Shown: piece by piece, positions 4,888-55,815 of the stretch | Layout: every line of letters begins with the position of its first letter | How positions within the stretch are numbered: the first letter of the stretch is position 1 | DNA from: a virus | IMG/VR virus record: IMGVR_UViG_3300027904_000001 | Strand: one strand, 5' to 3' | DNA length: 64,000 nt | Program-made: the position numbers and the translations under genes | Notes under the pieces: generated by a model | Told to the model about the DNA's origin: nothing | The model's input: the letters and a program-made list of their open reading frames with translations, nothing else | Database searches by the model: none

Positions 4888-5322
4888 ATGTGGGGCCGTG
4901 GTGAAAAGCGTCATCACAGTAATGTAGGCGAATATTTAGCTCCTGTATTAGCCGCAACAGCGATGAATCAGCCGAAGCCATGCTATGACTATGGATATGA
5001 TCGTAATGGTTATGAACATTGGGACATAGTTCGAGATGAAAATCGGGAATTTGGGAATATCAAGAAAGAAATTGCCGAAACCGGCTGGACTATTTCAAGA
5101 GAAGCCGACAGGAATTTTTATACTACGAGTAACCTAATCAATGAATCAAAGTATGAAAACGCCCGTCAAGCCGATCTCAACACATTTAATATTATACGGG
5201 AAATTAATCAAGGAACGCAAGCCGTATTAACAAAATTAGCAAACGATACCGAGCAAAGGTTGAGAGATGAACTATATGAGGCGCGGCTTAACTTGCCAAG
5301 ACCGCCTTATGGATATTGCTAA
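4888..5322 (+). CDS. Hypothetical protein with Tyr/Gly-rich motifs (start uncertain)
   Basis: ORF in the GC-richer island. Motifs YDYGYDRNGYEHW and PRPPYGYC. Confidence 0.35.
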   Translation: MWGRGEKRHHSNVGEYLAPVLAATAMNQPKPCYDYGYDRNGYEHWDIVRDENREFGNIKKEIAETGWTISREADRNFYTTSNLINESKYENARQADLNTFNIIREINQGTQAVLTKLANDTEQRLRDELYEARLNLPRPPYGYC

Positions 5323-13246: not shown

Positions 13247-14374
13247 TTATTTTGTTAAAACTGTATATAATACATCCGCTAGCGGAACCATGGCATTGGT
13301 TGCCTCGCCTATTGAATTCTTGTCAGAGCCAACTTCGACCAATATTGACTTAGCCCGCTGAAACGTAGAATACCTATGCTTATGCAAGTATATAGGCCGC
13401 ATCAAACCTGGATATTTCTCGTTAGCTTCTAAAAATAGTTGCAACGAAAACGCAGTATTTTCAAAAACATAGGGATTGTACAATCCACCTTTTGACAACC
13501 CGTTAAAAAACATAATTCTTGCAGTTGGCCTGTCGTCGAACATTGTCATAAATTTGCTCGGAGTGCCGTCACGGTGCATATCGATCACAATTTCTATGGA
13601 CGGATACATAGCGAGAGCTTCTCTTATTACTTCTTCTGAATATTCATAACTGCTGTAAAACTCGCCTGGCGGCACATATACATTTTCTATATGCAAAACA
13701 GATACTTTATAGTTTGTTTTCAAAATATTTGTAAGCATCTTTCCTACCCCTACGATAGAATCTGCTAATTCACCTGGTCTGCTATTTGAAAATGTTTCAT
13801 GACTGTGAGTATGAATGATCAATATCTTATAATCATCCCCGCTTAAATCTGTTTTGCAGTTATATGATAACATTTTATCTATAGGAAAATCTGATATACT
13901 AACGGAAACTTCTGCATCTACTATATACACATATCTTTTTAGTAAATCTAAGTTGTCTTTTATCCCTAGAATACCTAAGCGTGTAACCCCCTCAGCCGCT
14001 GGAGCTATTGGTATTGATGGCAGATTTTCTTGTTCTGACCTTGTTGTGATTTCGCCCTCTGTCCCATCCCAATTTGTTATCTTTGTAACCGTAACGTTAG
14101 ATGAAATATCCCGAGCTGATGCCAAAATCTCATCATTTATTCCGTACAGTGGATCATCTGAATTAATCGGATTCTTGTCACCTTCATTCTCCTTATATGA
14201 CAATTCGAGATTTATTTTACTTGCATTCCCAACAATAGATAATATCTCATCTGGAATAATTTCTGTAAATTCTTGTTTGATTTGCTCAACAACTGCATCT
14301 TTTTCTGGTGTTGGATTGAAATTTACTATTATATAGATGATGATAATTATAATTGCAACATCACCTATCTTCAT
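13247..14374 (-). CDS. SpoIIP-family protein (stage II sporulation protein P-like cell-wall hydrolase), membrane anchored
   Basis: N-terminal TM segment. KILIIHTHSHETFSNSRPGE resembles the SpoIIP (I/L)YHTHS.E(S/A)(Y/F) signature. Confidence 0.6.
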   Translation of the reverse strand: MKIGDVAIIIIIIYIIVNFNPTPEKDAVVEQIKQEFTEIIPDEILSIVGNASKINLELSYKENEGDKNPINSDDPLYGINDEILASARDISSNVTVTKITNWDGTEGEITTRSEQENLPSIPIAPAAEGVTRLGILGIKDNLDLLKRYVYIVDAEVSVSISDFPIDKMLSYNCKTDLSGDDYKILIIHTHSHETFSNSRPGELADSIVGVGKMLTNILKTNYKVSVLHIENVYVPPGEFYSSYEYSEEVIREALAMYPSIEIVIDMHRDGTPSKFMTMFDDRPTARIMFFNGLSKGGLYNPYVFENTAFSLQLFLEANEKYPGLMRPIYLHKHRYSTFQRAKSILVEVGSDKNSIGEATNAMVPLADVLYTVLTK

Positions 14375-15462: not shown

Positions 15463-16512
15463 ATGCCAGAAAATAGTAATAGTATCAATTTTTATGCAGG
15501 AATCGATTTGGGAGCTGGTCAACTAAATAGCGTGACGATTCCCGATGCAGATATTAAAAATGTAAAACAATTTAAACCGGGGGCAATCGTAACATTTCCG
15601 TCATTGATTCAAGACGGATGTGATAAGTTTGATCAAAGACAAAAAATCAAAGTAGAGTATGATGGCGGGATTTATAGTATAGGAATTGGTAATGATATTA
15701 TACATGAAGCTAAGTATATTACTAAGCAATATGAGACAATATTGTTAACATCTATAGCAATGTCAGCTATTCCGTCCAATGTTATTGCAAGTATAGCAAT
15801 CGGAATGCCTATTTCGCATTTCAGGAATGAAAAGCTAGTAGGTGGCGTTATTCAGCATTTACAAAGTTTAAGAAATAAAAAAATAGCTATTACCCCAAAT
15901 GGTAACAGTGAAATTGCGAAAACAATAACTATACAAAAGGCAAATGTATTGCCTGAAAATTCAGTTATTGTAATCAATCCAAACGCATATCAGGTAGGGA
16001 AATATTTGTTCATTGACATTGGAAATCGCACTATAGATTTCACTTTGTATAAAATAACAGAAAAGACAATCAACAAAGAAAATCGGAAAGTGGCAGAAAG
16101 AAGAGGGGCATATACATTAAATAAGGGTATTTTGACACTTAAGAAAAAAATAGTTGAAGAACTTGAAGGTGATTATAACGTAAAATTAAGTTTTGACGAT
16201 TATGACGATCTATTTACAGCCGCCATGGAAGGCTCAGAATTCTACTTAAATTTAATTGGCAATGTTCCTACGACAAAATACAAAAAAACTATAGACAATT
16301 ATGTAAGTAATAACATTTTTAGTGAACTAACCCGACTTTACAGCGATGAAATTGCTGGATCAAGATTAGTATTCCATGGATATGGTTCTGTATTGTTAGA
16401 ATCAATCCTAAAAAGCGATATATATAGAAGTGTATATATGTTGGGATTGCATCCTGATAAGCAATTTGCAAACGCAAAGGCGAATTTTATAGTAGCAACG
16501 CAATGCAAATAA
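15463..16512 (+). CDS. ParM/StbA-family actin-like ATPase (plasmid segregation)
   Basis: GIDLGAG ... IDIGNRTIDF are actin-fold phosphate motifs. RBS ggaggt. Confidence 0.6.
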   Translation: MPENSNSINFYAGIDLGAGQLNSVTIPDADIKNVKQFKPGAIVTFPSLIQDGCDKFDQRQKIKVEYDGGIYSIGIGNDIIHEAKYITKQYETILLTSIAMSAIPSNVIASIAIGMPISHFRNEKLVGGVIQHLQSLRNKKIAITPNGNSEIAKTITIQKANVLPENSVIVINPNAYQVGKYLFIDIGNRTIDFTLYKITEKTINKENRKVAERRGAYTLNKGILTLKKKIVEELEGDYNVKLSFDDYDDLFTAAMEGSEFYLNLIGNVPTTKYKKTIDNYVSNNIFSELTRLYSDEIAGSRLVFHGYGSVLLESILKSDIYRSVYMLGLHPDKQFANAKANFIVATQCK

Positions 16513-36575: not shown

Positions 36576-36597
36576 TGATGTACCGTAAATACATCGA

Positions 36598-36654
36598 AAC
36601 AACCGCTTGTTCAGCACCAAGGTTAAACGAAAAAAGATTTTAGGTATAAAATTA
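36598..36654 (+). promoter_or_regulatory. Palindromic operator-like site AACAACCGCTTGTT plus a -10-like GGTATAAA, copy 1
   Basis: Same element, with the same 29-nt spacing to GGTATAAA, at 38600..38653. Confidence 0.4.
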
Positions 36655-46491: not shown

Positions 46492-46968
46492 GTGGAATTT
46501 GAAGAAATATTGCTGGAATTAAAAAAAGGAAAGCGTGCAAGGCGCAAACAATGGCATAAAAACAATATGCCAACAGCAAATATTTTCATAGACAATGATA
46601 TTATAAGATACGAATGTTTAGATGCGGGTTATGAGATTTGTAAAATGTGGAGTCCAGTTGATATTAGTTCGGATGATTGGGAAATTATTGAAGTTAAATC
46701 GCCATCATTGGAATTACAAAATATATCAAAGGCGATGGCGGAAAGCATATCAGAGAATATTAGAAATACTGGTTTATTAGATATATCAAATAAAGACAAT
46801 AATGATGCTTTTTCGCGAGAAGAAATTAAAAATATACTTGAAAAAGAATTAGAAGAAATTAACAGTCAGTATAAAATAAGCAATAAATATTTAAAAGGAT
46901 ATTTGCTTGGTAATTTAGATGGCAGAAAAAATACAATATTAAATATTTTAACATTATTAATTAAATAA
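46492..46968 (+). CDS. DUF2829-domain protein (Tad2-like anti-defence sponge family) with C-terminal extension
   Basis: MEFEEILLELKKGKRARRKQW...ISSDDWEIIE matches the DUF2829 consensus (FEEAL.ALK.GKKVRR..W ... EDWEIV). Confidence 0.55.
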   Translation: MEFEEILLELKKGKRARRKQWHKNNMPTANIFIDNDIIRYECLDAGYEICKMWSPVDISSDDWEIIEVKSPSLELQNISKAMAESISENIRNTGLLDISNKDNNDAFSREEIKNILEKELEEINSQYKISNKYLKGYLLGNLDGRKNTILNILTLLIK

Positions 46969-48233: not shown

Positions 48234-49430
48234 ATGGAAATAATAAAATTGCCAATAAACTCTATAAAAAAGTATGAAAATAATGCCAAAATTCATACTG
48301 AAGAACAGATTCAACATATAATAAATAGTATTAAGCAATTTGGCTTTAATGACCCCATAGGTGTCTCAACTGATCAAAATATATGTGTCGAGGGACACGG
48401 CCGGCTTGAAGCATTAAAACAATTAGGTTATAAGGATGTTGAATGTATTCGGCTTGATCATTTGACGGATGAAGAAAGACGTGCATATGCTTTAGTTCAT
48501 AATCAAAGTACGATGGAAACGCATTTTGATGATGATTTGTTGAAAATAGAGCTTGATAATATATTTGATTTAGATATGTCTGATTTTGGTTTCGACTGGG
48601 GAGGGGCAGAATCGTTGGGCTTTAGTGGTGAAATTATTGAAGATGATATTCCTGATATACAAGACAATCTGATTGTTCAATTGGGTGATGTTTGGCAATT
48701 AGGGCAACACCGACTTATGTGTGGGAATTCAACTATTTTAAAAGATGTTGACAAGCTAATGAATGGCAATAATACGGATATATCTTTTACAAGCCCACCA
48801 TATAATATGGGAAAATCGCCAAGCAAAAATGTCAACAAAAATAATAGTAAATATATTAATAATGATGATAACATGTCAGAAATAGAATATGTTGAGTTTC
48901 TTCAATTATTTACTAATTTAGCACTTGATTATTCTGAATATTGTTTTGTAAATATTCAGTCATTATCAGGTAATAAAATTGCATTAATTGAATATCTATA
49001 TAAAATGAAAAAATTATATGCTGATACCATTATATGGGATAAACAGATTTCAGAGCCAGCAATGGGTGAAAACATATTAAATAGTCAATTTGAGTATGTG
49101 CATATATTTAGCAAAAAAGCGAACAGACGAATTGGCACAAGACCATTCAGGGGTACAATCAACAATATTTTAAATATTAATAAGCAAAATGATAATAAGC
49201 AATCGGATATTCATGGTGCAACATTCCCGTTAGAATTTGCGATGTATTTTGTAGAAAAATTTAGTGAAAAATCAGTATTTGAGCCTTTTAGCGGTTCGGG
49301 TACAACAATTATAGCATGTGAACAGATACACAGGAAATGCTATGCTATGGAATTAGAACCAATATATTGTGATATTGCGATTAAGCGATGGGAAAATTTA
49401 ACAGGAAATACAGCAATAAAAATAGAGTAG
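48234..49430 (+). CDS. ParB-like N-terminal domain fused to DNA N6-adenine/N4-cytosine methyltransferase
   Basis: ParB motif VEGHGRLEAL. Methyltransferase motif IV FTSPPY and motif I FEPFSGSGTT. Confidence 0.7.
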   Translation: MEIIKLPINSIKKYENNAKIHTEEQIQHIINSIKQFGFNDPIGVSTDQNICVEGHGRLEALKQLGYKDVECIRLDHLTDEERRAYALVHNQSTMETHFDDDLLKIELDNIFDLDMSDFGFDWGGAESLGFSGEIIEDDIPDIQDNLIVQLGDVWQLGQHRLMCGNSTILKDVDKLMNGNNTDISFTSPPYNMGKSPSKNVNKNNSKYINNDDNMSEIEYVEFLQLFTNLALDYSEYCFVNIQSLSGNKIALIEYLYKMKKLYADTIIWDKQISEPAMGENILNSQFEYVHIFSKKANRRIGTRPFRGTINNILNINKQNDNKQSDIHGATFPLEFAMYFVEKFSEKSVFEPFSGSGTTIIACEQIHRKCYAMELEPIYCDIAIKRWENLTGNTAIKIE

Positions 49431-49553
49431 GTGAAATAATGCCAGCGGGAAGACCAAAAAAAGAGATAGATCAAAAACAATTTGAAGTAGAGTAGGTGAA
49501 ATAATGCCAGCGGGAAGACCAAAAAAAGAGATAGATCAAAAACAATTTGAAGT
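49424..49553 (+). repeat. Perfect 65-bp tandem direct duplication spanning the terminase-small-subunit RBS and first 17 codons
   Basis: agagtaggtgaaataatgccagcgggaagaccaaaaaaagagatagatcaaaaacaatttgaagt occurs twice, back to back. Confidence 0.85.
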
Positions 49554-49968
49554 ATTGTGTTATATGCAAATGACAAAAAAAGATATATGTGAAGTATTAG
49601 ATGTATCTGAGAATAAATTAAGTGCATGGTGCGAAGAAAAATATGGTGATAAATTTTGCGTAATCTATTCCCAAAAAAGGGTTCTAGGAAAAGCATCATT
49701 TAGGAAATCCTTTTATGAGTTGGCGAAAAAAAATGCAACTGCTGCAATTTATGTAGATAAATCGTGGTTCAATGGAAGTGAATTGTCAGAATTAGATATA
49801 GAAATAAAACAGGCTCAGCTTGCGAAGCTTAAAGCCGAAACCGAACTCATAAACAGTAAACTAAATAATACATTTGAAGAAGAAGCACTACAAAAATTAG
49901 ATATGTTATTAGAGCAAAATAAGCAAGGTGCTGAAGCTGATGCCGAAATTCACGAAGAAACAGAATGA
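49504..49968 (+). CDS. terS: Terminase small subunit (HTH)
   Basis: Sits immediately upstream of the large subunit. MPAGRPKKEIDQKQFEVLCYMQMTKKDICEVLDVSENKLSAW. Confidence 0.6.
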   Translation: MPAGRPKKEIDQKQFEVLCYMQMTKKDICEVLDVSENKLSAWCEEKYGDKFCVIYSQKRVLGKASFRKSFYELAKKNATAAIYVDKSWFNGSELSELDIEIKQAQLAKLKAETELINSKLNNTFEEEALQKLDMLLEQNKQGAEADAEIHEETE

Positions 49969-51238
49969 ATATATTAGAAATGCGAACGCACGTTGGAATC
50001 TGAAGACAGGAGCCGTTAGAAGTGGAAAATCATACGTCGATATGTTTCATATGATACCAATGAGAATTAGAGAGCGAGCCAGAAAAGAAGGATTAATATT
50101 TATCATGGGCGTCACTGAAAGTACTATAGAGCGAAATTTACTTGACCCTATGCGAAAAGTATTTGGCGATTCACTTATTGGTAGAATAGGTAAAAATAAT
50201 AAATGCAGATTATTTGGTGAAACCGTATATTGCATTGGTGCCGAGAAGATATCACAAATAAGTAAGATTCAGGGAAATTCTACAAAGTACTTGTATTGCG
50301 ATGAATTAGCAAAATGGAACAAAGAAGTATTTAATTTCCTAAAAACAAGACTTGATAAGCCTTATAGTTTATGCGATGCAACATGCAATCCTGAAGGACG
50401 TAAACATTGGTTAAAAAAATTTATTGATAGTAAGAAAGATGGCATTGATTTATATGTGCAAACATATCGAATAGAAGATAATGCTGAAAACTTAGGTGCA
50501 GATTTTATTGAAAACTTAAAAAAAGAATTATTTGGTACAATCGCATATGACAAACTTATAGAAGGACGTTGGATTCAAAGTTCTGGATTGTGCTTCCCGC
50601 TTTTTGCCAATGATAACAAAAGATATATAAATGATTTAGATTCATACTTGACAGAATCACAGCAACAATTAGCGAGAGTTTATTGCGGAATTGACTATGG
50701 TTTTGGTGAAGGAAAAACATGTATGGTTTTGACGGCTGTTACAAAAAATTATAAAACACTTATAGCATTAGAAGAAAAGTCCATAGAAAAAGAAATTAAC
50801 CCCGCTCAACTTGAAAATATATATTGTGATTTTATTGAAAAAGCTTTTAAAAAATATCACTTGCCGATTTATGCATTTGCTGATACAAGTGACCAAATTT
50901 TAACAAAAGGACTTTCTAATGAGTCAAAAGTTCGTAGATTGCAAGCAGTGACCATATCAGTTACCAAAGTTGAAATAGTGGACAGGATCGCAATTATCAA
51001 TAAATTATTAGCTACGGACAGATTCAAGATAATGAATAATTGCAAGGAATTGATAGGTGGACTTAATGATGCATCATATGACGAAGAAAAGTCAATTGAT
51101 AAAGATGTTCGATCAAAAGACGGTTCATACAATGATCATATCGTAGATGGGTTTGAATATTCATTTAGCCACATCATAAATCAACTTGAAAATGCAAGCC
51201 TGCATAGAAATAAAAACTTGAAATCATTTGTAATTTAA
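49928..51238 (+). CDS. terL: Terminase large subunit
   Basis: Walker A GAVRSGKS, Walker B LYCDE, C-terminal nuclease domain. Confidence 0.75.
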   Translation: MLKLMPKFTKKQNEYIRNANARWNLKTGAVRSGKSYVDMFHMIPMRIRERARKEGLIFIMGVTESTIERNLLDPMRKVFGDSLIGRIGKNNKCRLFGETVYCIGAEKISQISKIQGNSTKYLYCDELAKWNKEVFNFLKTRLDKPYSLCDATCNPEGRKHWLKKFIDSKKDGIDLYVQTYRIEDNAENLGADFIENLKKELFGTIAYDKLIEGRWIQSSGLCFPLFANDNKRYINDLDSYLTESQQQLARVYCGIDYGFGEGKTCMVLTAVTKNYKTLIALEEKSIEKEINPAQLENIYCDFIEKAFKKYHLPIYAFADTSDQILTKGLSNESKVRRLQAVTISVTKVEIVDRIAIINKLLATDRFKIMNNCKELIGGLNDASYDEEKSIDKDVRSKDGSYNDHIVDGFEYSFSHIINQLENASLHRNKNLKSFVI

Positions 51239-51411
51239 CATAAGCTTATCAGTGCAGCAATACCACACAAAAGACAAGCAAATAATAAGAGCCTTAAAAT
51301 TGGCAACCAGGTTAATAATGGTGGTATCTGCACTAAATTTACTGCGTAGCAAGCAGAGCATAGTCTTCTGCCAGAAAAAGTAAAAATAATTATCAAGGAT
51401 TAATAAAAATT

Positions 51412-51681
51412 ATGAAGATGAATCTGGAAGCAATTGTTCAACTTGAAAATTTAATAAATGAAATCTCTGAAAGAGACTTCCCTAATGATTACGCACCTTT
51501 AAAAAAATGTAAATTAATATTGTCACAAGAGTTACCTTATGCAATACTATATTATCGTAGATGGAATGATGAAACAGGCGTCTTTACAAAATATAAATAT
51601 TATGTCGAGTGTTTTGACGATGAATGGCGTATATATAGAAAAAATATATGTATAAGTGAGAAGATAAAAGATGAACAATAA
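51412..51681 (+). CDS. Hypothetical protein
   Basis: ORF. Confidence 0.4.
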   Translation: MKMNLEAIVQLENLINEISERDFPNDYAPLKKCKLILSQELPYAILYYRRWNDETGVFTKYKYYVECFDDEWRIYRKNICISEKIKDEQ

Positions 51682-51895
51682 AAAAAGTTTGGATAACAAT
51701 ATTATGAATATAGAACTTAACAGTAATATAGAAAAAATATATGATGAATATGTAACGGATATATGGGAAATGTTAGAACCTGCAGTTATATATCTTAGAA
51801 AATATCGCGATCCCCATATGAAGTTCTTAATTACAATCGACGGGATAAAGGCGGTGATTAATATTTATGAATGTTACAATCCAAATATCGGATGA
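51671..51895 (+). CDS. Hypothetical protein
   Basis: ORF. Confidence 0.35.
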   Translation: MNNKKSLDNNIMNIELNSNIEKIYDEYVTDIWEMLEPAVIYLRKYRDPHMKFLITIDGIKAVINIYECYNPNIG

Positions 51896-52433
51896 AGCAG
51901 TAAATGAATTGATTAATGGTAATTTGATAAAAGTTCCGAATGAAGATTTGAATCAAATAATAATAAAAGCCGTAAGCGAATATTTAAACAATCAATATCA
52001 TCGGCAGTATTTTCTCGACGATGTAATTGGTAAAAATTATCAATTGGCGCAAGATATAGTGAAAATGATTAAAGATGCTACTGGTGAGATTACGCCAGAT
52101 GACGTGAAGGAAATTATTAAAGACAGAGCTATAAATTATATAGAAGATTGTATTCTTGATAAATTATTGTTTAAAGATAATCACGCTCCAGTTCCTGAGT
52201 TCCAAAAAGTAATTGATGGTGTATTCAAAAGTGAAGAATTAAAATTAGCCGTTCATAATAGAGCCATAAAATTGACAGAAGAAATGGAAGATATTGATTT
52301 AAACTGGAATGCAATTATGAATGAAATTATAATTGATTTTGTTAAATATAATATATTTACTCATCATAGTATCCATCAAGCAATTGACGACAAGTTAAGA
52401 AACTTATCAAGCAATCTACGAAAAACTTTTTGA
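51867..52433 (+). CDS. Hypothetical protein
   Basis: ORF of 188 aa. Confidence 0.45.
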   Translation: MNVTIQISDEAVNELINGNLIKVPNEDLNQIIIKAVSEYLNNQYHRQYFLDDVIGKNYQLAQDIVKMIKDATGEITPDDVKEIIKDRAINYIEDCILDKLLFKDNHAPVPEFQKVIDGVFKSEELKLAVHNRAIKLTEEMEDIDLNWNAIMNEIIIDFVKYNIFTHHSIHQAIDDKLRNLSSNLRKTF

Positions 52434-52502
52434 CACAAATAACACCCGCTTTTCCTGCTTATTATTTAATTGCGGGTTTTTTGACATATAATATTAGAAT
52501 AG

Positions 52503-52718
52503 GTGATTATTATAAATGTTAAAATTCAATATGAAGAAGCTCACGAATGTTATAATATACAAGTATTTATACCAAAAAATGTATTAGATATTTATGACAA
52601 TGAAACATTAAAAAAAATTATAAAAGGTTGTATAATCGAACATATTGATGATAATTTTAATATGCACGAATTAGATAATAATATCTTGAATAAATCAAGC
52701 GGGGGCAAATTAAGATGA
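52503..52718 (+). CDS. Hypothetical protein
   Basis: ORF. Confidence 0.35.
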   Translation: MIIINVKIQYEEAHECYNIQVFIPKNVLDIYDNETLKKIIKGCIIEHIDDNFNMHELDNNILNKSSGGKLR

Positions 52719-52891
52719 CTAACGAAGAAATTATGCAATTTAAGTGTAATATTTTTGAAGATAAATTAAGTGAAGTCATGGAAGAAGTATATAATATTTA
52801 TTCTGCGGCAGATGACCAATTGCAAAAATATGCTATACATATTGTTGAAAGATTGGGAAATGGAGATATCAAGGAATACGGCAGAATTTAA
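52715..52891 (+). CDS. Hypothetical small protein (58 aa)
   Basis: Below the ORF-track cutoff; ATGA overlap. Confidence 0.3.
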   Translation: MTNEEIMQFKCNIFEDKLSEVMEEVYNIYSAADDQLQKYAIHIVERLGNGDIKEYGRI

Positions 52892-52962
52892 ATTCAAACA
52901 AAACTTAATGAAGAATGTTTAGAAATAACTCAAGCTTATTGAAGGTTCCAGCTGGGGAATGA

Positions 52963-53208
52963 TTGAAAATGAATATAGTTAAACATGGTAAGATTAAAAA
53001 AGGGACAAAACTAGCTAAAATTTTTAGATGCAATAATTGCGAATGCATATTTGTAGCGAATAAAGATGAATATTATATTACAGTAGAATGGTATGAATAT
53101 GAATATTCAAATACTGTAAGATGGCACGGAGATATTTATTATATGTGCAATTGTCCAGAATGTAATTTTAAAGCTTATGAAAAACGATTATCGGGTAAAA
53201 ATCATTGA
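52963..53208 (+). CDS. Small zinc-ribbon protein
   Basis: CNNCEC...CNCPECN. Confidence 0.4.
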   Translation: MKMNIVKHGKIKKGTKLAKIFRCNNCECIFVANKDEYYITVEWYEYEYSNTVRWHGDIYYMCNCPECNFKAYEKRLSGKNH

Positions 53209-53265
53209 CTATATTTATTTGGATACGGCGTCTTTGTGATTCATTTAAAAAAAAGAGAGGCGAAA

Positions 53266-53445
53266 GATGAATATTAAGATTTGTAAAAGATGTAATCATT
53301 CTCAAGAATTGAAAGGTAAATTATATTGTCTTAAAGATTTAAATCCTAAGTATCGTCCTAATGATATTGTCCCATTGTGTAGAAAAATAGAATCATGTGA
53401 TTTGATTGAGGATACCCCAAAAAAAATGTTAGGTGATAAAAAATG
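53266..53445 (+). CDS. Small zinc-ribbon protein (59 aa)
   Basis: CKRCNHS...CRKIESC. RBS gagagg. Confidence 0.3.
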
Positions 53446-53661
53446 ATTAATGAAATGTTGCTAACAAGTAAAGACATTGAGCAAGTTCTGTCAAAAACAG
53501 AACCAATAATAAATGATTATAATCTTTGTAAGACGGTAGAGAGCCGGGAATTATTGGCTGAGTATATTTTTGGTAAAGTTCGCCATGCGTTGCATATGCT
53601 TCGAGTTGTTAATTACAAAGATAATAATTTGACTGATAAATATGTAGATGAGTTGAGCTAA
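53443..53661 (+). CDS. Hypothetical protein
   Basis: ORF. Confidence 0.4.
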   Translation: MINEMLLTSKDIEQVLSKTEPIINDYNLCKTVESRELLAEYIFGKVRHALHMLRVVNYKDNNLTDKYVDELS

Positions 53662-53762
53662 TAGACGGGACTGATTAAAATAAATATAATTGAATATAGC
53701 AATATATAAATATTGTTAAACATAATTTAAACATAATTTAAATTGAAAACAATCCCATTAAC

Positions 53763-53794
53763 CCCGCTTATCAATTGATTTAGCGGGCTTTTTA
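53763..53794 (+). terminator. Rho-independent terminator
   Basis: cccgcttatcaattgatttagcggg followed by cttttt. Confidence 0.5.
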
Positions 53795-54050
53795 TTGTAT
53801 AATAGAAATAAAAACCGAGGTTATGTATATGAATTACATAATAGAAAGACAATTACAATTGCCAGATACGATAGAGGGTTTAAGTAAATTTGTTCTTATA
53901 TCAATTGAAAAGGTTAGCGCGATACGTGCAGAAATCCGGGCTATAAAAAACCGATGAAGACCCTGATAATGAAAATGATTAAAAAGTAAACAGGTCGCAA
54001 AATTAAACATTGCCTATTGAAATATTGATAAGCCTATTGTATAATTATAT

Positions 54051-54461
54051 ATGAGAAATTACCAAAAACATATTGAGGAGATTATAATGGGTTATATTAC
54101 AATTGATAATATTGATTCAGTTATGAAAGAAATGCAAGAAGATAGTTTTTATATTCCTAAAGTGCTTTTTAAGGACAAGAAATATAAAAAGATTAGCGTT
54201 GATAGCAAAATATTATACGGTCTATTGTTAGACAGACAAATTCAAATCAAAAAAGAGTTTAATGATCCTATAATTAATAAAATTTACTTTAGTTATGCAT
54301 TAAACGAAATTGCAAATGATTTAGGATGTAGTTGCAATAAAGCACTTAAATTATTAAACGAATTATTGAGTGTTGATCTCGTTGAAAAGCAAAAACAAAC
54401 GATTGGAAAACCCGCTATGCTTTATGTGAACGAATTAGGCTTAGAGGGTATTGAGATATGA
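54051..54461 (+). CDS. RepA_N-type replication initiator (winged-helix N-terminal domain)
   Basis: IPKVLFKDKKYKKISVDSKILYGLLLDRQ...IYFSYALNEIANDLGCSCNKALKLLNEL...GKPAMLYV matches the RepA_N pattern. Confidence 0.55.
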   Translation: MRNYQKHIEEIIMGYITIDNIDSVMKEMQEDSFYIPKVLFKDKKYKKISVDSKILYGLLLDRQIQIKKEFNDPIINKIYFSYALNEIANDLGCSCNKALKLLNELLSVDLVEKQKQTIGKPAMLYVNELGLEGIEI

Positions 54462-54718
54462 AAATAAATATGGAAAAATTTGAAAAATTTAATCGTTGTG
54501 GATATGGAGTTTCACCATCCTTATTGCATAAAGATCAAAACTTAACAATTGAAGCTAAAGGCATTTATTGTTATTTTATGTGTTTTCTAATGACTGTCAA
54601 CAATGAACCTTGTTTACAGCTACCTAAAGTTGAAGAGATAGTTAAAGACCTGAATATATCTGAAAATAGATACTATAAACATTTGAAGTTGCTAAAAGAA
54701 AATGAATATATAATTTAA
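54458..54718 (+). CDS. Replisome-organizer N-terminal-like wHTH protein
   Basis: GYGVSPSLLHKDQNLTIEAKGIYCYFMCF...ENRYYKHLKLLKENEYI. Confidence 0.45.
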   Translation: MKINMEKFEKFNRCGYGVSPSLLHKDQNLTIEAKGIYCYFMCFLMTVNNEPCLQLPKVEEIVKDLNISENRYYKHLKLLKENEYII

Positions 54719-54842
54719 AGAATTAATTGGCTAAATGTATTATTTTGTTTGTGGATTTTACTTTTGGGCAATTCTAGATTTACATTGAACTAATTATAAT
54801 ATATACTAACTACATAGTGCAAAACGCAGTCGCGAGCGTTGA

Positions 54843-54872
54843 GGTAGGCATTTCCTATTCACCTACCTTTTT
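54843..54872 (+). terminator. Rho-independent terminator
   Basis: ggtaggcatttcctattcacctacc followed by ttttt. Confidence 0.5.
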
Positions 54873-54946
54873 AAGCACTAATTTTTTTATGAAGAATAGG
54901 AAAAAGGATAAAAATAAAATTTATTAAATGAATAGGAGTCTTTATA

Positions 54947-55807
54947 ATGAAAGATGATGAAATAAGAGATCGATTAGAAGTCGATGGTATTTTAGCCATG
55001 GGATATGGCAATAGTCCGAAAATATTGCATAAAGATCGTAGATTAACTATGGAAGCAAAGGAAATTTATTGTTACTTATCAAGTTATTGCGGTGGTGGTT
55101 CAGTTGCATTCCCAAGCCGTAAAACCATTTTATATGATTTAGTTACATCAGAAACTAGATTTTATAGGCATTTCCAGTTACTAAAAGATTATGGATATAT
55201 AGAAGTTACACGTATTAGAAAAAATAATAAATTCGGACATAATGTTTACAAATTAATTCAAAATCCTTCTCTATGCCCTCGTTTTGAAGGCATAGAAAAT
55301 GAATGCATACAAAAACAATGCATAGAAAATGAGGGCACTAATAAAAACAGTACTAATAAAAACAAAAAAAATAAAAACAACAACAACATTACAGATCAAA
55401 TTTCAAACACTGATACTTCTCAGTCCTCAAACGTTGTTGTTGTTAAAGACTTTCTTTTTGAAGACTCTTCTATGATTCCACACAGATCAGTTGACAACAG
55501 TTCTGGGGTGGAGTCGGTTGACATACAAGCGATTGATGATTTAATTAAGAAATATATAACTCCGAAACAAGATATAGATCATGCCAGCCTGAAAAGTATA
55601 AGTGCTGCCAGCGGGTTTAGCATGGAAAGATTAGAGAAAATACTAAAAACAGTACAAGGACAAGAAAATAAAATTAGGGGGATTGTCGGTTGGCTTATTA
55701 AAGCTATCAGTAACCCCGCTTTTGATTTAAGCAAAGTTGAGATTGAAGAAAAAAAATATGAACCGGTTAAGAAAGAAAAAAAAGGGCTGGATAGATGGCA
55801 GAATTGA
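54947..55807 (+). CDS. Replisome organizer (Phage_rep_org_N-like) with internal iterons and KKEKKGLDRWQN tail
   Basis: GYGNSPKILHKDRRLTMEAKEIYCYLSSYCGGGSVAFPSRKTILYDL...; C-terminus IVGWLIKAISNPAFDL...KKEKKGLDRWQN. Repeats gcatagaaaatga occur twice, at 55290..55331. Confidence 0.6.
   Translation: MKDDEIRDRLEVDGILAMGYGNSPKILHKDRRLTMEAKEIYCYLSSYCGGGSVAFPSRKTILYDLVTSETRFYRHFQLLKDYGYIEVTRIRKNNKFGHNVYKLIQNPSLCPRFEGIENECIQKQCIENEGTNKNSTNKNKKNKNNNNITDQISNTDTSQSSNVVVVKDFLFEDSSMIPHRSVDNSSGVESVDIQAIDDLIKKYITPKQDIDHASLKSISAASGFSMERLEKILKTVQGQENKIRGIVGWLIKAISNPAFDLSKVEIEEKKYEPVKKEKKGLDRWQN
55288..55375. repeat. Iteron-like direct repeats inside gene 54947..55807
   Basis: ggcatagaaaatgaatgcatacaaaaacaatgcatagaaaatgagggcactaataaaaacagtactaataaaaac. 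Confidence 0.4.
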
Positions 55808-55815
55808 GGTGGCAA

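Follow-up and report, generated by a model that had tools for sequence, protein, structure and literature searches.

The question raised by this locus is why the start of a small terminase gene should be preceded by a perfect copy of itself: whether such a repeat belongs to the machinery of DNA packaging, whether it is a recent accident of replication or recombination, or whether it arose only during the assembly of the sequence. The repeat lies in a 64-kb window (the whole stretch of viral DNA analysed here, 64,000 nt), which is part of the 89-kb circular genome of a large Firmicutes phage. By sequence inspection and repeat search it consists of two units of 65 nt, arranged head-to-tail without a spacer at 49423-49552 and 100% identical, copy 1 occupying 49423-49487 and copy 2 occupying 49488-49552, both on the + strand. 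Since the unit opens with TA and the same dinucleotide follows copy 2 at 49553-49554 (+), the identity spans 67 nt, and Tandem Repeats Finder reports the array as 49423-49554 with a period of 65, 2.0 copies, 100% matches, 0 indels and a score of 264, the runner-up tandem array anywhere in the 64-kb window scoring 81. The pair is the sole long perfect direct repeat detected in the window by the repeat search, and the chance expectation for tandem matches of 65 nt in it is ~1e-31. The sequence-only reading, which had noted a perfect back-to-back duplication of 65 bp spanning the ribosome-binding site and early codons of the small terminase gene, is thus confirmed by both searches, the unit taking in the ribosome-binding site together with the opening 16-17 codons of terS; the site that it gave, 49424-49553, was right, while its exact ends were each one base short, an immaterial difference.

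The unit straddles a gene boundary. The upstream gene (48234-49430, +) encodes a protein with a ParB_N domain and an N6/N4 DNA methyltransferase (ParB-MT; Pfam PF01555, 1.6e-19; phrog_498, 4e-92). Copy 1 contains the last 5 nt of this gene and its TAG stop (49428-49430), which overlaps a Shine-Dalgarno sequence (SD), AGGTGA, at 49429-49434, followed by an ATG at 49439 and by 16 codons plus 1 nt identical to terS. Copy 2 bears the functional SD and the start of terS, a gene of 154 aa (49504-49968, +), the assignment of which as small terminase depends on its position directly before terL and on two weak profile matches (phrog_309, 5e-5; phrog_2538, 1.5e-4); profile searches for Pfam and NCBIfam families gave no match. 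The large terminase gene terL (49940-51238, +, 432 aa) is matched by phrog_2 (3.5e-34), by Terminase_6N (1e-6) and by the PBSX-family model TIGR01547, in the last case with 84.5 bits and so below the cutoff of 105. Its product has distant relatives among the terminases of Firmicutes siphoviruses, and its nearest phage relatives are at no more than 40% identity. A scan for promoters and terminators found none at the repeat, and the counts were at or below shuffle expectation.

One product of the duplication is an ORF of 18 codons at 49439-49495 (+), the translation of which is MPAGRPKKEIDQKQFEVE. It ends at the second copy of the ParB-MT TAG (49493-49495), which overlaps the SD of terS (49494-49499) and lies 8 nt before the terS ATG, such that the parental spacing of stop, SD and ATG is reproduced exactly one more time. 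The earlier proposals that copy 1 generates an 18-aa decoy ORF just after the methyltransferase stop, and that copy 2 starts the real terS, are both borne out by these coordinates. ParB-MT and terS remain intact despite the duplication, because the unit itself holds the stop of the upstream gene, the SD and the terS start. As the parental geometry is simply repeated, the duplication probably has little effect on terS translation, and is probably near-neutral as a variant.

Which arrangement is parental can be judged from other assemblies of the same phage. Exact-protein look-ups recovered contigs of this phage in two ENA metagenome assemblies, of which the first, ERZ27257344 contig k141_5718961 (89,136 nt; MEGAHIT, k=141), was tiled with seven loci for comparison to the window. 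When one 65-nt copy is taken out of the window, there are 0 differences between the two over 63,935 bases, so that the duplication is their sole difference; the contig carries one unit only (locus L072, with the end of ParB-MT at 19133 and the start of terS at 19142). The second, ERZ27257345 contig k141_2551998 (19,432 nt), corresponds to the window from 40805 to ~60300 with 1 SNP in 19.4 kb, and likewise carries one unit, its terS ATG coming 8 nt after the ParB-MT stop. The terS gene of the single-copy assemblies is identical to that of the window. A further contig of 1,155 nt from JGI (sample 3300002127) is identical to the window along its length. The closest relatives, ERZ27257344 and ERZ27257345, thus give a single copy as the parental state, as would be expected of a sporadic tandem duplication, and the window itself is the only sequence bearing the duplication among those compared. 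The single-copy outcome, which had been put forward as the result that would overturn the duplication if seen in long reads, was obtained in these two short-read assemblies rather than in long reads.

The single-copy arrangement may be written as ...AAAAA/TAGAGTAGGTGAAATAATG...CAATTTGAAG/TATTGTG..., the slashes marking the limits of the unit; between AATAAAAATAGAGTAGG and CAATTTGAAGTATTGTG it has one unit, and 8 nt separate the ParB-MT stop from the terS ATG. The junction between copy 1 and copy 2 reads ACAATTTGAAG/TAGAGTAGGTGAAATAATG, or, written from the other side, ...CAATTTGAAG/TAGAGTAGGTG..., and the only sequence common to the two breakpoints is TA, a microhomology of 2 nt. On this evidence, we favour a very recent and probably near-neutral duplication at this 2-nt microhomology, carried by some genomes of the phage, and put its probability at roughly 0.55. 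The parental single unit would probably have been duplicated by replication slippage or by illegitimate recombination at the TA microhomology, whereupon copy 1 would become the 18-codon ORF with its stop lying over the SD of the real terS. A tandem repeat of 65 nt would be expected to be unstable and easily lost, and the two states could then be accounted for if both alleles occur in the population and each assembler picked a different one. That the duplication is present in one assembly and absent from an otherwise identical one suggests, in the same sense, that it is carried by part of the population.

An otherwise base-identical assembly lacking the duplication, maybe derived from the same reads, is also the look of an assembly error. 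According to this explanation no two-copy molecule exists, and the second copy would have been introduced into the source contig during or after assembly, by contig merging, scaffold gap closing, consensus polishing or a spurious graph loop. We consider this a substantial possibility, if one held at rather less than even odds. In its favour, the MEGAHIT k141 contig differs from the window over 64 kb by the duplication alone, and the zero SNPs relative to ERZ27257344 suggest the same population, perhaps even the same reads. An array of 132 nt, had it been dominant in those reads, would by our reasoning have survived uncollapsed at k=141. There are also indications of further oddities in the source contig. 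The exact TerS sequence is found in NCBI as MCL2310881.1 in a MAG labelled 'Firmicutes bacterium', the longest contig bearing it being 89,217 nt long. If this is the source contig, as we presume, its length amounts to 88,995 + 65 + 157 nt, the last of these being an unexplained surplus relative to a clean circular contig, and one that equals no common assembler k.

Other features of the repeat speak against an error of this kind. From the way in which de Bruijn graph assemblers generally work, such a junction would be expected to require reads that contain it, and since only 2 nt are common to the breakpoints, the junction should be beyond invention by a pure de Bruijn assembler. The length of 65 nt differs from the k (141) of the comparison assembly, the rest of the window contains no further discrepancy, and the repeat lies well inside the record. 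The suggestion, made from the letters, of an artefact where a contig or a circularly permuted genome was joined finds no support in the comparison assembly. The ends of the ERZ27257344 contig overlap by exactly 141 nt (= k), and this overlap maps to window positions 5170-5310, 44 kb away from the repeat. The window runs unbroken across this join, so that a reading of the repeat as the circular join of that assembly is rejected; by the same continuity, the genome closes as a circle of 88,995 bp, which contains a single copy of the 65-nt unit. The terminal k-mer overlap of circular de Bruijn assemblies resembles the present case in that it, too, gives the assembled genome of a circular phage a perfect direct repeat. 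The true instance, however, is the 141-nt overlap at the ends of the ERZ27257344 contig, whereas the 65-nt repeat is internal and tandem.

A different kind of explanation would give the repeat a function in packaging or regulation, either as a duplicated pac or TerS-binding site, as a short direct terminal repeat in tandem, or as a regulatory leader ORF for terS. Its position invites the idea, as many phages, for example SPP1, P22 and lambda, have their pac or cos sites at the 5' end of terS. The motif CAAAAAAAGA[G/T]ATA could be cited in the same direction, since it occurs once in each unit (49455-49468 and 49520-49533) and again 54 nt downstream inside terS (49574-49587). One occurrence per unit and one in downstream terS mean that the single-copy parent has two copies of the motif, and its recurrence in A-rich coding sequence could be due to chance. 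We regard a function of this type as very improbable. The otherwise identical genome in ERZ27257344 and the near-identical one in ERZ27257345 have one copy each, although their TerS is 100% identical, and the genome circle closes without the second. The resemblance of terL to the PBSX family and Terminase_6N suggests headful packaging, with which PBSX-family terminases are associated and for which no exact terminal repeat is required.

More distant relatives give the same picture. We scanned 66 of them, namely 65 IMG/VR contigs and one MAG, all with a TerS of 41-60% identity. Exact direct repeats of 12 nt or more were sought up to 400 nt from the start of the terS match, and none of the loci (0 of 66) had its terS start spanned by a duplication. 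All repeats that the scan did detect belong to an unrelated coding microsatellite, ~200-300 nt upstream of terS in ten IMG/VR loci (L023, L025, L028, L032, L042, L046, L048, L054, L058 and L059), in which a 15-nt tandem unit, e.g. (GAAAAGGCTGCTGCG)n, is present in just over one to seven copies. A 30-mer spanning the junction of copy 1 and copy 2 occurred neither in IMG/VR nor in any of the 81 loci fetched, and exact and degenerate DNA patterns for the terS start likewise matched nothing in IMG/VR or among the metagenome contigs of JGI. Annotated phage and plasmid collections contained no megablast match to the region, and a search of GTDB species genomes with the TerS protein yielded one relative, which at 41% identity is too distant for DNA comparison. 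A search of the literature on tandem duplication at terS or at pac yielded general terminase papers only.

The zero divergence between the copies gives the repeat no evolutionary age, and the lack of a second copy in the identical genome, the near-identical one and the relatives implies that it is no conserved element of the pac or terminal-repeat kind. The suggestion that it is associated with pac or the initiation of packaging thus finds no support. The pac sites that lie within terS or beside it, such as SPP1 pacL, pacC and pacR and the pac of P22, and the terminal repeats of T7-like phages, share with the 65-nt repeat the connection to the 5' end of terS, but the latter is not conserved and its terminase is PBSX-like rather than of the T7 type. 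Similarly, the 18-codon ORF, in ending on the SD of terS, recalls leader peptides and upstream ORFs that are coupled in translation to the gene after them. This ORF, however, is a by-product of the duplication, repeating the coupling of ParB-MT stop and terS start already present in the parent, and is absent from the ERZ27257344 and ERZ27257345 contigs.

A more speculative possibility links packaging and accident. The duplication, if real, could be the repair scar of a double-strand break made by the terminase at pac, the ends having been rejoined or re-primed at the TA microhomology. We would give this idea only a slim chance. Were it true, the duplication would mark the point of pac cleavage at the terS start of an uncultured phage, and such phages would be generating packaging-site duplications at a raised rate.

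A recent sporadic duplication, the explanation that we prefer, requires nothing out of the ordinary. Microhomology-mediated tandem duplications of the class ascribed in phages and bacteria to slippage or illegitimate recombination have the same head-to-tail arrangement, identical copies and 2-nt microhomology at the junction. As in sporadic tandem duplications generally, neither the otherwise identical genome nor the sister assembly has the second copy, and both genes survive intact although the duplicated unit crosses the boundary between them. As judged from assembled sequence, no feature separates the 65-nt repeat from this class. The evidence fits an ordinary sporadic microhomology-mediated tandem duplication, or its assembly look-alike, and nothing novel. 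The biological weight of the repeat is consequently small, and its main import is one of caution, in that the record has a 65-nt duplication which is absent from an assembly matching every other base of the window. In annotation, neither the 18-aa ORF nor the 65-nt repeat should be mistaken for a signal of packaging or regulation. Should the duplication be confirmed in reads, it would exemplify near-neutral structural polymorphism within a phage population that is otherwise clonal.

The remainder of the window has several features that stand apart from the repeat. Downstream of terL are the portal gene (59658-61211) and the major capsid gene (61992-62948). The gap of ~8.4 kb between terL and portal (51239-59657), unusual for a packaging module, is filled mostly with small ORFs, including those for RepA_N and HTH_36 proteins, and contains a 55-nt repeat in two copies, 80% identical, at 54522 and 55023. 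The replication genes in the window comprise a DnaB-like helicase, Lin1244/DnaB_2 and AAA_24; two DNA methylases and a LydA-type holin are also encoded. An actin-like ALP_N protein (15463-16512, +) suggests segregation of the plasmid type and a possible phage-plasmid lifestyle. There are two Tad2-like genes with the Thoeris anti-defence domain, at 46492-46968 (+) and ~58503-58757 (+), the second being a weak match, and a set of three genes at 20865-23061 (-) encodes a ParB_N-like protein (a faint match), an acetyltransferase and a PAPS-reductase/DUF3440 protein.

Genes of sporulation type are represented by SpoIIP (13247-14374, -), FtsK/SpoIIIE (17616-19451, +), SpoIID (19448-20842, +) and a protein with the C-terminal domain of Spo0A (42442-43140, +). 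Just after the last of these lies a homologue of the major vault protein (MVP; 43112-45697, +, with the start placed by gene callers at 43142), 851-861 aa long and of the same overall length as rat MVP. It is matched by the Pfam families MVP_shoulder (1.3e-22) and Vault_3, and its residues 444-781 match the solved eukaryotic MVPs at E ~5e-16. Bacterial and phage homologues of MVP are reported in two preprints (bioRxiv 10.1101/872010 and 10.1101/2023.11.10.566534), and so a protein of this kind is already known.

Lastly, a direct repeat of 54 nt, 76% identical between its copies, is found at 36597-36650 and 38600-38653. Its start, AAACAACCGCTTGTTCA (17 nt), and its end, AGGTATAAA, are identical in the two copies, both of which lie between listed ORFs of at least 90 aa. 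The repeat may represent a regulatory element common to both sites.
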